Part shown: positions 7,630-23,650 of the stretch, one piece after another
Layout: the number at the start of each line of letters is the position of its first letter
Position numbering within the stretch: position 1 is the first letter of the stretch
IMG/VR virus record: IMGVR_UViG_3300016649_000292
Location: 1 to 28,107 of that record
Strand: one strand, 5' to 3'
Origin: a virus
Lineage: Duplodnaviria > Caudoviricetes
Length of the DNA: 28,107 nucleotides
Notes under the pieces: model-generated
The model's database searches: none
Told to the model about the DNA's origin: nothing
Seen by the model: only the letters and a program-made list of their open reading frames with translations
Made by a program: the position numbers and the translations under genes

Positions 7630-7675
7630 GATGTTTATTTTCATCATTCGAAAAAAATGTTAAAACAAACATTCA

Positions 7676-7693
7676 TGTCTCGTTGTTGGCACA
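7676..7693 (-). promoter_or_regulatory. Late activator site of the V-operon promoter
   Basis: TGT-CTCGTTGTTGGC-ACA (TGT-N12-ACA), centred about 55 nt upstream of ATG 7629. Confidence 0.75.
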
Positions 7694-7769
7694 ACACCCC
7701 TCTTGTGTGGTGACTTAATTCTTTGAGCCCAAATAACGATCTTTATGACAAACTGAGGGAAATCATTTA

Positions 7770-8483
7770 ATGTCACACACACACCTCGTTGAGGATAATT
7801 CGCCTAATAACACTAAGATTTGTTATCACAGCACCTGGATAACATGTCTCTCAATTGCCTTTTCATCTATAGCGACAATTGTAGTTTGGGTATTAGTTTT
7901 TCAAATATCCTTAAGCGCTGGGTTTTCTTCTTACTTCGGGATCAAAACGGAATACTTTTTACAACATCCCCATGCACAAATGGATGCACTTACCCTGCAC
8001 AATATTGGAGAGTTAGTTTCCAATGGCACGTTGCTAAGCTTGGATGACTTATGGTCATTTCAAGGGACTTTTTATCAGACAATTATCACTGTTTTGATTG
8101 CTTTAAATGCTATTTTAGGTGGGTTTGCATTTTTCATGGTTAAACAATCTTCTAATGCTAAGGCAAGAGAGGAAGCGATATTAGAAGTACAAAACTATAT
8201 TGAAAGTAAATCGTTTGATCGTGAAGTCAAGGAAATAACCAACGCTAAAGTAGAATCAACTGTTAATCAAAAAATTGGTGCCTTGCAACTTGATTTAACT
8301 TCACAGATAGACACCATAGGTAGCTTGATTTCAGAAGTCGAAGAACTAAGAAAAAGAGACGAAAGAGTCAAACAACTTGAGTTAGAATGTGCGGAAATGA
8401 AAAGACACATTTCTATTTTATCACATGAAATCTCTCTAAGAGATAACTCTGAAAATGATGGTTCATCATTAACGTTAGGGTAA
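7770..8483 (+). CDS. Hypothetical membrane protein, two TM segments plus C-terminal coiled coil (cargo gene 1)
   Basis: Hydrophobic stretches WITCLSIAFSSIATIVVWVLVFQISL and IITVLIALNAILGGFAFFMV; heptad-like charged C-terminus; AT-rich; GAGGG RBS-like sequence upstream. Confidence 0.75.
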   Translation: MSHTHLVEDNSPNNTKICYHSTWITCLSIAFSSIATIVVWVLVFQISLSAGFSSYFGIKTEYFLQHPHAQMDALTLHNIGELVSNGTLLSLDDLWSFQGTFYQTIITVLIALNAILGGFAFFMVKQSSNAKAREEAILEVQNYIESKSFDREVKEITNAKVESTVNQKIGALQLDLTSQIDTIGSLISEVEELRKRDERVKQLELECAEMKRHISILSHEISLRDNSENDGSSLTLG

Positions 8484-8493
8484 GGATATTAAA

Positions 8494-9036
8494 ATGGCTT
8501 TTATGAAAAGGAAAGGTGTTGAGAATAAAAGTACTAATGGTGAAGCGATCATAGCAAATACTCCTGAAGAACTTTTATCCTTTGCTAGTAATAATGGGAT
8601 CTCAATTGAACCTCTGGATGTAACCAGTTTGACTCAAAAACTTGGTATTTCAATGAGAATGGAACCTATGATTGGCGAGGAGTCTGGTAGCCTTAAAAAA
8701 GATAAATTTGGAAAGTGGATAATGACGATTAATTCATTGCACCACCCACATCGCCAACGCTTTACAATTGCTCATGAATTGGGTCATTACATTAAGCACA
8801 CAATTTTAACAGAAAACTTTATCGACACGACTTTTTTTAGAAATGAAGAAAGCAATCAAATGGAACATGAAGCTAATAAATTCGCAGCAGAATTGCTTAT
8901 GCCTCAAGTACTTTTTGAAAAGTATATTACAGAGGTTTCTAAACAAGTAGAAGATGTAGCTAAATACTTTCAAGTTTCATCAATGGCTGTTCGTATCAGA
9001 GCTAAACAACTTGGATATGAAGGGCATAATTTATGA
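8494..9036 (+). CDS. ImmA/IrrE-family (M78) Zn metallopeptidase without an N-terminal HTH
   Basis: RQRFTIAHELGH (HExxH) and EHEANKFAAELLMP signature motifs. Confidence 0.9.
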   Translation: MAFMKRKGVENKSTNGEAIIANTPEELLSFASNNGISIEPLDVTSLTQKLGISMRMEPMIGEESGSLKKDKFGKWIMTINSLHHPHRQRFTIAHELGHYIKHTILTENFIDTTFFRNEESNQMEHEANKFAAELLMPQVLFEKYITEVSKQVEDVAKYFQVSSMAVRIRAKQLGYEGHNL

Positions 9037-10067
9037 GTGAATATTGTTATTTCCCTTTACTTAAGACTCGTGATGCTGAGCTAAAAGCAGTGTCTAAGTT
9101 TAATCCGGAAGATTTTGATAGTGTTTTACCTATATATGAATTAACCAAGTCACGGAAAACTAAAATAGCTCCTGATGGTGATATCCATAGAAAAATGTCG
9201 GCCATTAAGGAGATACAAGGAGGCAGACCATTTATTTTGGATGTTACATCTAATGAAAAATATATAAACTATCAACTAGAACAACTTTTAGATGAAAACA
9301 ATTCATTTTATGAATGGCAATATTTCATAAATTTATACAGTGATATGAATATCATACCCATGATTCACTTGTATGATGAGGATGACTTTACTGAGGTGTC
9401 AGGTTTTGTTAGAACCATGTCCGAAACTAAAGAACACCTTGCCGTTAGATTGCCCTATAACCTTGATAACTATAAAAAATTCATAAAACCTATATATGAC
9501 AACCTCTCTGATGACTGCAAACTGTATGTGATTTTGGATGGTGAGCAAGTTATGAAAGGAAAATCAGAAACTATCACTGATGATTTTATCTTCGCGTGCT
9601 CAGAACTTGAAGAGTTCGAGCAAAAAATTGAAGATATCATAACCGTATGTACATCCTTCCCATTGAGTCCTGCTGCAGAAGGGAACGATGATCACGGAGA
9701 GTTTTCCATTCTTGAGGAAGAAATATTCAAGAATGTTTCTTCCGAGTGGCCCATTAAATATGGTGATTATGCTTCTATAAATATTCAACAGGTTGAGATT
9801 AAAGGAGGGACTTTTGTTCCTCGAATAGACATTTGCCTGGAAAAAGAGTTCATATATAAAAGATATCGCAGGAATGCGGGAAGCTATATTCTCTGTGCTA
9901 AAAAAATGGTTGCAGATGAAAGATATAAGTCATTAGGAGTATGGGCTGATGAAGAAATAGTCAGCGCCGCTAATGGTGAGCCATCTGGCATCAGTCCTTC
10001 ATTTTGGATAGCGGTAAGAATGAACTATTATATGACGTCTCGAACAAGACTGAGATTAAAGGACTAA
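9033..10067 (+). CDS. Beta-family protein (P4 beta / sce7725-like)
   Basis: YFPLLKTRDAELKA N-terminus, TSFP, YGDYASI, PRID and W..VRMNYYM motifs recognised from the Beta family; ATGA overlap with the peptidase. Confidence 0.7.
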   Translation: MSEYCYFPLLKTRDAELKAVSKFNPEDFDSVLPIYELTKSRKTKIAPDGDIHRKMSAIKEIQGGRPFILDVTSNEKYINYQLEQLLDENNSFYEWQYFINLYSDMNIIPMIHLYDEDDFTEVSGFVRTMSETKEHLAVRLPYNLDNYKKFIKPIYDNLSDDCKLYVILDGEQVMKGKSETITDDFIFACSELEEFEQKIEDIITVCTSFPLSPAAEGNDDHGEFSILEEEIFKNVSSEWPIKYGDYASINIQQVEIKGGTFVPRIDICLEKEFIYKRYRRNAGSYILCAKKMVADERYKSLGVWADEEIVSAANGEPSGISPSFWIAVRMNYYMTSRTRLRLKD

Positions 10068-10667
10068 TTCTAAAGATGACATTCTTGTGAGAGTGAGAAT
10101 GTCATCTGAATGAATTTTTTCTCCGACTTCTTTCAAAAACATTCCAAAAGGGATAGCAATTTTCTTATACACATCTTTTCTAGAAATGACTCTTATTTCA
10201 TCGAGACTTTTTTGCTTAGAAAGCATTTCGCAAAGTTCATGTTTTGACTTGATTTTTTTATCCGCTACAATTTTACGGAGATGACGAATATCGATAGTAC
10301 TCGCCAAAGAAATTTTATCATGATTTCTAATGTGGTAGGACTTTCTTACTTGAGTAACAACTTCATCTTCGACAAGCAAAACACCTACGCTACGTGGTAT
10401 TTTTTTTCTAATGCTATCTAGATTTGATTTCTCACAAACAACAAAACATAAGTCGAAGTATTTTTTATAACTTTCAATTTGACTTTCTAAACGATCGGTA
10501 TTATCTCCTGCTCCTTTGATTTCATAAGCCGTAAGTTTTCCTTCAGACATGCTAATTATATCAGCCCTACGAGTCCCGAAATCAAAACGAAACTCAGAGC
10601 TTATGACGTTAGTTTTACATTTAATTAAAGACTCTATCAGAATCTTCTTTATTTCAATTTCTTTCAT
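10056..10667 (-). CDS. sce7726/MmcB-like PD-(D/E)XK nuclease-fold protein
   Basis: EFRF...RADII...AYEIKGAGDNTDRLESQIESYKKYFD...VGVL; convergent with the Beta gene, 12-nt 3' overlap. Confidence 0.7.
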   Translation of the reverse strand: MKEIEIKKILIESLIKCKTNVISSEFRFDFGTRRADIISMSEGKLTAYEIKGAGDNTDRLESQIESYKKYFDLCFVVCEKSNLDSIRKKIPRSVGVLLVEDEVVTQVRKSYHIRNHDKISLASTIDIRHLRKIVADKKIKSKHELCEMLSKQKSLDEIRVISRKDVYKKIAIPFGMFLKEVGEKIHSDDILTLTRMSSLELVL

Positions 10668-10749
10668 TACTTTTCACCATCTACACATTAGACATATTAT
10701 TTAGTTTTTATGGTTATTTGTACAGTGCTTTTTATCTCTATGGGTAATC

Positions 10750-19464: not shown

Positions 19465-20259
19465 TTATTCTTCTATTAGAAATCCGATTACATGCTTACT
19501 ACCTAAGGATGATGCTACTACAGGTTTGTTTTTATCACCGCTAGTGCACCGAAGAACATCACTAAATAGGGCGCTGATGCTTTTCACCTCGGATTTTTCA
19601 GATGTTTTATAAGCATTGAAGCCTCTGTCACTATATAAAAAAACATAGCTTTCGGGAGTGATTTTTTGCATCTTTTTTATCTGGCCTTCGAGTCTTGGGT
19701 GTTTATTATTTGTTTTTGATAAATTATCAACTTTTTTTGATTGGATCAGTATGGTTTTAACGACTCGTTGGCCAAATTTATCATTTATGTCGAATATAAA
19801 ACTAAGGTCAGCTCCATTCACTGGTTCTTTTTTGACTGATGAGTAGGACTGGAATGTAATATTTACTTTTACATTATCACTTTCGAATTTTTCAAATAAA
19901 TCTGCACCAAGAACTGCCGTAATCATATCTTCCGAGGAAAATGAATGGTATTTTTGGGTTATTTTGTTAATAACGTTATCCACGTGATGAGAGATTTTTT
20001 TAATGAAATCTTCAGACAAATGAGTTGTTGTGTTTTCACTATAATCCCATATCTGATAAAACATCAATAGAGCTTGAGATTCAAAGTTAGAACCTAATTT
20101 ATGAAGTTTTTTTAATTCAAAACCATTTTCATTTAAAGTTAATTCGAGTACGGGTAAGGCATTATTAGGGATTTTTATGAATTGTTGATCCGAGGGTGAA
20201 GTGATGTTCACTTCGTGAAGGACCATATCCAATAAGTAATACTTACACTTCTTTCTCAC
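19465..20259 (-). CDS. Hypothetical protein with a PD-(D/E)XK-like (D...QxK) nuclease fold
   Basis: E(251-like helix) KKEPVNGADLSFIFDI...KTILIQSKK pattern, followed by QIKKMQKITPESYVFLYS; AT-rich; GAGGGT RBS before a GTG start. Confidence 0.55.
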   Translation of the reverse strand: MRKKCKYYLLDMVLHEVNITSPSDQQFIKIPNNALPVLELTLNENGFELKKLHKLGSNFESQALLMFYQIWDYSENTTTHLSEDFIKKISHHVDNVINKITQKYHSFSSEDMITAVLGADLFEKFESDNVKVNITFQSYSSVKKEPVNGADLSFIFDINDKFGQRVVKTILIQSKKVDNLSKTNNKHPRLEGQIKKMQKITPESYVFLYSDRGFNAYKTSEKSEVKSISALFSDVLRCTSGDKNKPVVASSLGSKHVIGFLIEE

Positions 20260-20874: not shown

Positions 20875-21732
20875 ATTGCTAATTCCTCGCTACATTAATC
20901 TTTGGGGGGAGGTCAAGAATGCCAGATTGACGATGCATAAAAATTGATTTTTCATTTATCTCAACCCTTGAATAATCGATTGCATAGTTTTATTTTGAAT
21001 TTCTTCAAAAACATTTCTTATTTCTATTATAGGGTCTTTAACTGTAGGTACATCCATTTGCTGTTTACGTTTATCAGGGCTATTAATAGACTGGTACACA
21101 TTGAATGACTTTATAATTATTTCATCAGTTTTATTTATAAAATCTTGGTCTACAATATCCCTTCCCCATAGTAATAGACAAATCTTGGCGCTTTTAAATT
21201 CCGTATATGTTTTTATAAGCAGCTGAGGCTTTTCATTCAGGTTTTTTTCATGTTTATTTTCTATGTTTGAATTGATTGCATTTAATATGCTCACAAGAGC
21301 ATTTCCCGTATAGATTAAGTTTTCAACTTTTTGAGATGTGGTTTCTTTTTTCTTTTGTTCAAACCATTTTCTAGCAGAATAAGCAGCATAAACTGCAACA
21401 TATGCCATTATTGCATTGGATAGAGCAATCACTGTGTCCATGATTGTACCGAACTGAACGCTGCTACTTGCCACATTGAATACTTTATTACCTATATACC
21501 ACAATCCTAGAACTACAAGTACTAGCAGTGCTAGAATAACTGTCTTTACGAAGACATTGCAAATCCGACCCTTCATGATCTTATCCCTCAATCTAAAAGA
21601 TGATGAATACCATAAAAAGTAGGATCAACACTATTCAATTTCATAGTTTTAAAGTAATAATAAGTGTTGAGATCATAAATATAGGTTATATGACATTCGC
21701 CTCAGAGATTAACACACATTGATGTTAGTAAT
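20875..21732. repeat. Imperfect ~42-bp inverted repeats (20875-20915 and 21691-21732) bracketing one gene
   Basis: Left ATTGCTAA...TTAATCTTTGGGGGGAGGTCA versus reverse complement of right ATTACTAA...TTAATCTCTGAGGCGAATGTCA; about 26 of 42 positions identical by hand alignment. Confidence 0.5.
20956..21591 (-). CDS. Hypothetical membrane protein (two N-terminal TM helices)
   Basis: VILALLVLVVLGLWYIG and VIALSNAIMAYVAVYAAY segments; GAGGG RBS favours ATG at 21576; AT-rich. Confidence 0.7.
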   Translation of the reverse strand: MRDKIMKGRICNVFVKTVILALLVLVVLGLWYIGNKVFNVASSSVQFGTIMDTVIALSNAIMAYVAVYAAYSARKWFEQKKKETTSQKVENLIYTGNALVSILNAINSNIENKHEKNLNEKPQLLIKTYTEFKSAKICLLLWGRDIVDQDFINKTDEIIIKSFNVYQSINSPDKRKQQMDVPTVKDPIIEIRNVFEEIQNKTMQSIIQGLR

Positions 21733-21992: not shown

Positions 21993-23623
21993 TTATCGGT
22001 GTAAAAGTGCCTTGACTTTATCAGCGACCACCTCAGGGTTTTCATCATAGACCATGTAGAGTTTATCACGCAATAAAGGCAATGCTGTTTTCACTATTTC
22101 CTCGTCATCTTTTTTACTAACGTCAAAAGTTTTACGTCACCATCGGATATTTCACTAGCTAAAACTGCTCTTAATTCTTTCTGAGGCCACTCTTTATTAA
22201 CTGAGTCAGCTGACAATATGGCAATGACATACTTAGACTTAACTAGTGCTGAATTTATTTTTTCAATTAAAGAGTCTCCCCATTTTATTTCCACATGATC
22301 TATGAAAGCGGAGATATTTATTTTAGTCAACTCATCGTATACTGGGGTTGCAATATCTTTCTTATCTTCACTTGCATGACAGATAAATACATCAAAGTTT
22401 TCAGTTTCTTTCATGGCTCGCAGCCCTTCTTTTGTTTTTAATGGATCGTTGTGGCTCATATATGACATAAGCTTTAAATATCCAGGATAATTCTCTCCTC
22501 TAACCATTTTTATGAAACTAAGCCTTCCATAAATGTGGTTTCGGAAAATTTCAATAGCTTGGTTATTATCTCTAGTCTGATATCCTTTTTCTGTACTAAA
22601 AAGAAGTGCATACTTCACCCTATCGTCTTTCCATCTATGAATCATGGAACGTGTTATTCTTATGTATTTTCGGTCAATATTTACTTTCTCATTAACGACT
22701 AAACCAGTAACGCTTTGCCTAGTATTTCTTGTTTGAACCCTAAATTTATCATGATTAATTTTAAAACCATTTTTCGATATGATATTCTCAACGGTTTCGC
22801 TAATTACATAATTTTCATCATCACTTTTTTCAATTACATCAGTAACTTTTGACTGATTAAATGAAAAGGTGATATCGTCAGCATACCGAGAATAAGATAT
22901 ATTTTTTCTACCTGCCAATTGAGTAAGCTGTTTGTCGAGTGAAGTCGATGCAAGATTTGCTAATATAGGAGATGTACATGCACCTTGAGGCAATTTACCA
23001 TTATGAGTACAGAGCTGAGCTAAAACAGTGGCCGCTGGATGAGCAAAATTGAAAGGTTTACTTTTGAATATTCCATAAACTCTAGCGAATGTTATTGATT
23101 CAAAATAATTTTCCAGATCAATATTTACAACAAATTTTTTTTTAATGTGCATTTCGGCGTTTGTAATAATACTTTTCCCTTTTATAAAGCCGTGAGCAGA
23201 TTTTTTTGGTCTATAAAAATATTCAACGATAGGCTTTAGCTTTTCCTGGAGTATTGACAAACCTCCTTTGGGAGCATTAATAATTCTTTTTTTTCCATTC
23301 TTTTTTTCTATCTCAAAAGTTCGGTAATTATCTTTTTTATGATAGAGAATAAAGAGTAATTGGCCCGCGGGTACCTCAAGTAAATTAGCGACATCACTTA
23401 CAGATGTAATTGAAACTTCACCAGACTCAATTAGCATGCATATTTTTATTAAATTATCGTGATCTGTAGTCGCTTTATTTTTAAGTTCTTTATTTCTCCA
23501 TTTAATTTTCTTTCCATCTTTGTATGGTTGTGGTTCAATTTGAGGAAGTTCGGATATGAAGCTAGGATTTTTTTTATTGGCTAATACGAGATTGTGCATT
23601 AACAATTTATCATGTAGTGACAA
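21993..23623 (-). CDS. Retron reverse transcriptase-TIR fusion, split by a -1 frameshift at 22109-22115
   Basis: RT motifs SAHGF, NAEMH (retron region X NAxxH), LPQGACTSP, YADD and VTGLVVN (region Y VTG). C-terminal TIR: FDVFICHASEDK...WPQKEL. Frame 0 stops at 22094; the -1 frame continues DDEEIVKTALPLLRDKLYMVYDENPEVVADKVKALLHR to 21993. The AGGAG RBS favours TTG 23623. Confidence 0.9.
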
Positions 23624-23650
23624 AACCAACTCCTATCATTTTATTAATGT

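Follow-up and report, generated by a model that had tools for sequence, protein, structure and literature searches.

A conserved four-gene cassette in the cargo slot of a P2-like prophage is a likely anti-phage system

In a P2-like prophage we found four genes, located between the tail genes V and S and encoding a predicted membrane protein, a predicted M78 peptidase, a Beta-family protein and a convergent cII homologue, that form a real conserved unit. We propose that this cassette is likely an anti-phage system, and put the probability that it defends against phage at about 0.85, because its gene order is kept across many bacteria and because it joins two parts of a system of proven function; it likely protects the lysogen from other phages by abortive infection. 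The window analyzed, meaning the whole stretch of 28,107 nt, is a P2-like prophage record in which sheath, V, S, A and cox are present. The features on which the argument turns are the following.

7648-10749, no strand: cargo slot of the P2-like prophage, low in GC and variable, flanked by tail genes V and S
7770-8483, plus strand: gene 1, 237 aa, intact ORF; predicted 2-TM membrane protein with a long C-terminal helix, candidate effector
8494-9036, plus strand: gene 2, 180 aa, intact ORF; predicted stand-alone ImmA/IrrE (M78) zinc peptidase
9033-10067, plus strand: gene 3, 344 aa, intact ORF; Beta-family protein, predicted TIM barrel
10056-10667, minus strand: gene 4, 203 aa, intact ORF; sce7726-family PD-(D/E)XK protein, cII homologue, convergent with Beta

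Genes 1 and 2 are separated by a 10-nt gap, genes 2 and 3 share an ATGA overlap, and genes 3 and 4 overlap tail to tail by 12 nt, exactly the geometry of three linked plus-strand genes and one convergent gene, all intact, given in a preliminary description of this DNA. The AT-rich block that it placed between V and S is likewise evident, with a GC content of 0.346 over 7700-10740 against 0.589 in V and 0.553 in S, both flanking genes being assigned with PHROGs. The spacing suggests that a single coupled transcript would carry genes 1-3, with cII expressed from the other strand; a promoter scan performed at chance (9 against 11.9 expected), as did a terminator scan (1 against 1.6 expected). Elsewhere in the window, a low-GC block between replication gene A and the head genes carries a TIR-fused retron reverse transcriptase (22094-23629, minus strand), which scored above the NCBIfam cut-off for NF042941 and matched PADLOC RT-TIR_XII. 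The same block holds two further low-GC ORFs on the minus strand (19465-20259, 264 aa, and 20956-21591, 211 aa); neither reached a family cut-off, and the second had weak membrane-protein matches only.

Conservation of the four-gene order was assessed in 35 fetched gene 1 loci, of which three were false (L039-L041) and were dropped, eight were cut by contig ends, and 24 had 2.3 kb of flank. The peptidase, Beta and convergent cII genes follow gene 1 in the same order in 24 of the 24 flanked loci, which are not independent of one another, since there are near-copies among them: L001/L016, L031/L033 and seven loci of the E. coli type. In the contig-cut loci the peptidase is the next gene in seven, and the contig ends at gene 1 in the eighth. 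The preliminary description had named neighborhood conservation as a check on its proposal, and with these near-copies counted the four genes do recur together elsewhere. Cassette loci span Vibrio, Shewanella, Pseudoalteromonas, Amphritea and Celerinatantimonas, and a GC-rich locus, L038, has the same gene order at 29-41% identity; at another, L037, Beta and cII are in two pieces. The Vibrio salilacus cassette (L007, 5980-11068) lies directly after a gene that by eye resembles glmS, the usual Tn7 site. Matches were found in 72 of 5,426 complete E. coli genomes (about 1.3%), with all four annotations in 30 of 30 among the matches listed, and in the two E. coli regions that we opened the cassette is located in an island adjoining a type I R-M locus. 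Four of 14 RNA runs gave a contig across the E. coli cassette in one run and no cover in three, library DNA being a possible source.

The V-S slot was surveyed in the 80 closest S-gene loci (L071-L150), 74 of which had a V match in range. Gaps between V and S ranged from 81 to 4,631 nt and were mostly low-GC, two loci having no valid gap, and the 74 slots contained 72 cargo protein clusters. The four-gene cassette was absent from all 74 of these slots; it adjoins V in other P2-like contigs (L001, L002, L018 and L030). At a threshold of 1e-5, PADLOC models matched 21 of the 68 cargo clusters scanned, some weakly and one as an ArsR regulator, with strong matches to Septu, Old, retron I-C, 3HP, PDC-S06 and an EcoRII-like nuclease, and an arsenic-resistance operon occupied the slot in two loci. 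The slot is rich in defence genes, though these are not its only cargo: the hotspot context assumed in the preliminary description is found in sister phages, together with the arsenic operon. The 47 scanned clusters with no PADLOC match are candidate new defence genes and, if our reading of the cassette is correct, the V-S slot of P2-like phages would be a source of further ones.

This mixed cargo bears on whether the cassette is directed at phages at all, since an addiction or stress-response cassette that stabilizes the element might also be carried in such a slot. M78 peptidases are reported to act in DNA-damage signaling and element induction (PMC13228613; 10.1101/2022.04.27.489752), and RosmerTA antitoxins are reported to be essential (PMC13566846), as for addiction modules. 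We nevertheless regard this explanation as very unlikely, because two of the four genes are homologous to those of a proven defence system and because the contexts of the cassette in phage and island are both defence-rich.

Genes 3 and 4 are homologous to Beta and cII of P4, so half of the cassette is already known as a system; gop-beta-cII of P4 protects against lambda and P1 (PMC9122126) and kills the cell when a phage gene sets it off (10.1101/2023.04.06.535777), the trigger being reported as orf184. Gene 3 matched PF14350 (E 8.6e-39), PADLOC beta (1.3e-51) and, over its full length, PD-Lambda-2_C (1.6e-12), and it aligned with P4 Beta over the full length at 28% identity (hhalign 100% over 332 columns); a 94%-identical Beta is assigned to Pantoea agglomerans, and plasmids yielded three Beta matches only, all distant. 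Its AF2 model (pLDDT 92.8) has alternating strands and helices and is predicted to be a TIM barrel, the top fold matches being barrel enzymes and designed TIM barrels that tie at Z 12-13.3 (rmsd 3.3-4.7, identity 3-12%); because many barrels tie and none stands out, no activity can be read from the fold. The ESM Atlas gave no usable match outside the Beta family, and PDB sequence searches with Beta and cII gave none. Gene 4 scored above the cut-off for NF033832 (sce7726 family), an annotation that P4 cII also carries, and matched the PADLOC cll model (E 6.4e-20 over residues 1-197) and P4 cII itself (32% identity over 1-97, E 2e-10). Across 22 aligned rows, P4 cII among them, E25, D36, E49, K51 and Q63 do not vary, as would be expected of an active PD-(D/E)XK nuclease. 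The preliminary description saw a gop-beta-cII-like chassis here; its Beta homologue and convergent partner stand, but it left gene 4 unnamed as cII, which PADLOC, the sce7726 model and P4 cII all indicate.

Gene 2 has the features of an M78 peptidase. It matched PF06114 (E 3e-23), and its HELGH motif (H94, E95, H98) is invariant across 50 aligned relatives and is accompanied by a third Glu zinc ligand, so that a peptidase is predicted; the HExxH and D...ExK motifs noted previously in the two putative enzymes are both present, with key residues invariant in relatives. All PADLOC matches were partial: capP (1.6e-33), where gene 2 ends at position 154 of 242 in the model; RmrA (1e-15), whose models (357-400 long) are matched in the peptidase part only; and PD-Lambda-2_B (5e-10), aligned at positions 292-377 of 402 only. 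PDB sequence matches were CapP (7t5t) and IrrE (3dte). No HTH Pfam matched, and gene 2 has neither an Xre HTH nor a GAF domain nor, by eye, a cysteine switch. "HTH-less", as the peptidase had been called, is thus right for an N-terminal Xre HTH, but by eye the last 30 residues resemble the HTH-like linker of CapP/IrrE. The Arg that precedes the first zinc His by seven residues in CapP/IrrE is kept in gene 2 as R87. CapP binds ssDNA between its peptidase and GAF domains, the latter forming the ssDNA groove (PMC13228613). Because gene 2 keeps the CapP-equivalent Arg and has no GAF domain, we speculate that Beta may fill the sensor role.

Gene 1 likely has two predicted TM helices, an outer loop of about 50 aa and a coiled-coil C-terminal helix in the cytoplasm. 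Hydropathy analysis found two hydrophobic segments (windows starting at 21-37 and 101-108), and the AF2 model (pLDDT 71, pTM 0.27) has helices at 22-48, 91-145 and 147-224. In 95% of 140 relatives TM2 is followed by a basic residue (K/R), an arrangement that suggests a cytoplasmic C-terminus. The same 140 aligned rows have conserved polar residues in TM2 (Q103/T104/T107/N113), and a conserved outer segment, SLDDLW, precedes TM2. The family is large (664 representatives/clusters at 50% identity, E<=0.001), and gene 1 reached no Pfam, PADLOC or NCBIfam cut-off: PADLOC gave no match for the window protein, with each model matching at most 8 of 140 members, and neither the gop, PD-Lambda-2_A and RmrT models nor Pfam toxin models matched. 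Homology to Gop was not detected with a single P4 Gop sequence as template (hhalign probability 0.6% and 1.3%), and the ESM Atlas returned only unnamed clusters. Some relatives are named "hydrolase" or "HD family hydrolase" in databases, names that we rejected, 0 of 140 members having an HD or other hydrolase Pfam match.

Our preferred but tentative model, to which we give slightly less than even odds, is that gene 1 is a latent membrane killer restrained by the peptidase and Beta and released by infection, with cII adding DNA cutting or a signal. The gene 1 protein would be anchored in the inner membrane, its coiled coil reaching into the cytoplasm, and would be kept silent by Beta and by the peptidase, its constant partner; infection would be sensed via Beta and possibly also via DNA that the cII nuclease has cut, and the lifting of control would depolarize the membrane and kill the cell. 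The model draws on Gop, which is a 2-TM protein (Rousset Table S1B, PMC9122126) reported to be toxic without Beta (PMC9122126, citing Ghisotti 1990), and on RosmerTA, whose toxin, the partner of an M78 antitoxin, depolarizes membranes (PMC10440598). The polar face of TM2, the gene order kept in the 24 flanked loci and in L038, the homology of Beta and cII to a system active against lambda and P1, and a location in a slot that holds defence genes in sister phages, or beside type I R-M in E. coli, are consistent with it. Weighing against it are the near-copies among the 24 loci, the arsenic operon as slot cargo, the missing GAF domain that forms the ssDNA groove in CapP, and the lack of detectable relation between gene 1 and Gop or PADLOC models.

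The opposite polarity has to be considered because in PD-lambda-2, where the same X-peptidase-Beta order occurs, the peptidase protein B is toxic and the upstream A rescues (PMC9519451). By analogy, the peptidase would be the toxic effector, gene 1 a membrane tether and antitoxin, and Beta the component coupling infection to release. The PD-lambda-2 Beta-like protein is reported to be required for defence and not for neutralization (PMC9519451), which also counts against restraint by Beta in our preferred model. However, the Xre HTH of PD-lambda-2B could account for its toxicity, M78 proteins elsewhere are antitoxins or anti-repressors (PMC13566846; PMC10440598), and in a quick tree of trimmed rows the long M78 proteins group apart, on a long branch. 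We consider this polarity unlikely, and return to it with the other Beta architectures below.

Drawing Beta genes independently of gene 1 (6 of 400 and 10 of 401 genomes, in samples that overlap and include the seed genome) gave 13 non-seed Beta loci in 11 genomes, the unreadable locus G321 being scored as a miss. An M78 gene lies directly upstream in 9 of the 13; a TM gene, a short M78 gene and Beta occur together in 5, which makes the membrane-protein version the commonest peptidase form among the drawn loci; a convergent cII is present in 6, and all four genes in 2. Other operon heads upstream of peptidase-Beta look HigB-like or GNAT-like by eye, and this variation in the upstream gene is as the PD-lambda-2 polarity would have it. 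The peptidase profile was used to fetch 80 viral loci; Beta is present in 24 of them, 19 of which also contain cII, and a TM gene lies directly upstream in 23 of the 24, the other being cut, as expected if gene 1 is the killer. Eleven of the 56 viral peptidase loci without Beta (10 distinct) combine a similar TM gene with a short peptidase in 3.4 kb of Beta-free flank, three matching the gene 1 profile and the others judged by eye; this pairing suits both polarities. When the cII profile was used to fetch 80 viral loci, 67 had a convergent Beta and only 13 an M78 gene; in several, as in Pasteurella phage Pmp11, a small TM gene resembling Gop is present instead. Because each pair also occurs apart in viral loci, membrane protein plus peptidase and Beta plus cII are separable modules. 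Beta-free and Beta-bearing peptidases interleave in the quick tree of trimmed rows, which shows no single origin. The two-gene units of membrane protein and short M78 peptidase, seen without Beta in viral contigs at L168, L169, L177, L178, L194, L195, L198, L200, L202 and L208, are possibly a minimal system.

That Beta and cII can stand without genes 1 and 2 raises a further possibility, that cII is the main effector, cutting phage or host DNA under the restraint of Beta, and that genes 1 and 2 form an added sensor at the membrane, through which Beta or gene 1 is proteolysed on phage injection. The invariant catalytic residues of cII, the 67 of 80 cII-anchored viral loci with convergent Beta and the conserved SLDDLW segment would fit such an arrangement. 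Yet 7 of the 13 drawn loci have no cII beside Beta, including 3 of the 5 with TM gene, peptidase and Beta, and PD-lambda-2 protects as a three-gene unit with no named cII; we judge this explanation quite improbable. Other loci show further combinations: a tandem duplication of peptidase and Beta in which the second peptidase has no third zinc ligand and a third M78 gene lies upstream (L059, 4596-9390); a gene that looks GNAT-like by eye with M78, Beta and cII (L062, 4230-7494); a 351-aa gene with a long M78 and Beta (L065, 4399-8032); and an M78 pair tail-to-head with cII-Beta (L069, 2427-5917). It is conceivable, though doubtful, that a modular and uncatalogued defence superfamily is organized around Beta, with a TIM-barrel sensor controlling an M78 peptidase; in the membrane-protein form, infection would trigger the proteolysis of a membrane effector and thereby kill the cell, and gop-beta-cII and PD-lambda-2 would be special cases.

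Both gop-beta-cII and PD-lambda-2 protect against phage, and the available text of the cited papers reports a mechanism for neither. The cassette holds parts of both, together with the putative catalytic residues E95 and K51, and so makes the role of Beta directly testable. If our reading is true, about 1.3% of complete E. coli genomes (72/5,426) would carry this defence system, and a large membrane-protein family with no Pfam model would gain a function.

Comparison with described systems places the cassette beside several of them. We found no description of the four-gene unit in the openly accessible literature or a 2023 copy of PADLOC, subscription papers and bioRxiv supplements being outside reach, and a recent screen may list it; the available text and supplement of a Pectobacteriaceae Tn-seq paper mention no sce7726, beta family or ImmA (PMC13566846). 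The earlier statement that the arrangement is not characterized agrees with this, but the same domain order is listed, untested there, in two rows of Rousset 2022 Table S1A (PMC9122126), to which the accessions WP_064767764 and WP_140158689 belong. A PADLOC run on all four proteins, a check suggested previously, gave no complete match to a described system. Like gop-beta-cII, the cassette has homologues of Beta and of a convergent cII in a variable phage slot, and a 2-TM, coiled-coil-like gene heads the operon in both. It differs in having an M78 peptidase between the membrane gene and Beta, in a gene 1 of 237 aa with an outer loop, compared with 133 aa and no detectable homology in Gop, and in a Beta only 28% identical to that of P4; Beta and convergent cII are thus in place, whereas Gop directly upstream of beta is not. 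The preliminary description placed a membrane effector in the toxin slot, and gene 1 is indeed a predicted membrane protein, but this is no change of kind because Gop itself is 2-TM; the real addition is the peptidase. With PD-lambda-2 (Vassallo et al. 2022, PMC9519451) the cassette shares the order of X, M78 peptidase and Beta-like gene, but X, a membrane protein in the cassette, is HigB-like in PD-lambda-2, whose peptidase has about 400 aa and an Xre HTH compared with 180 aa in gene 2, and cII belongs to the cassette unit, so that the Beta-like third gene is common to both while the HigB-like first gene and the Xre-M78 fusion are absent. RosmerTA (PMC10440598) similarly pairs an M78 peptidase with an unrelated membrane-located partner; the cassette, however, has no full-length RmrA (HTH plus peptidase) and no RmrT match, and Beta and cII are extra. 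CapP/IrrE (10.1101/2022.04.27.489752; PMC13228613) is the best PADLOC and PDB sequence match to the peptidase domain, with R87 kept, whereas the cassette has no GAF domain, cysteine switch or HTH repressor gene, and with neither the GAF domain nor the adjacent HTH repressor it is not CapP+CapH. Judged from its sequence by their defining genes, the cassette falls outside gop-beta-cII, PD-lambda-2 and RosmerTA and appears to be built from their parts.
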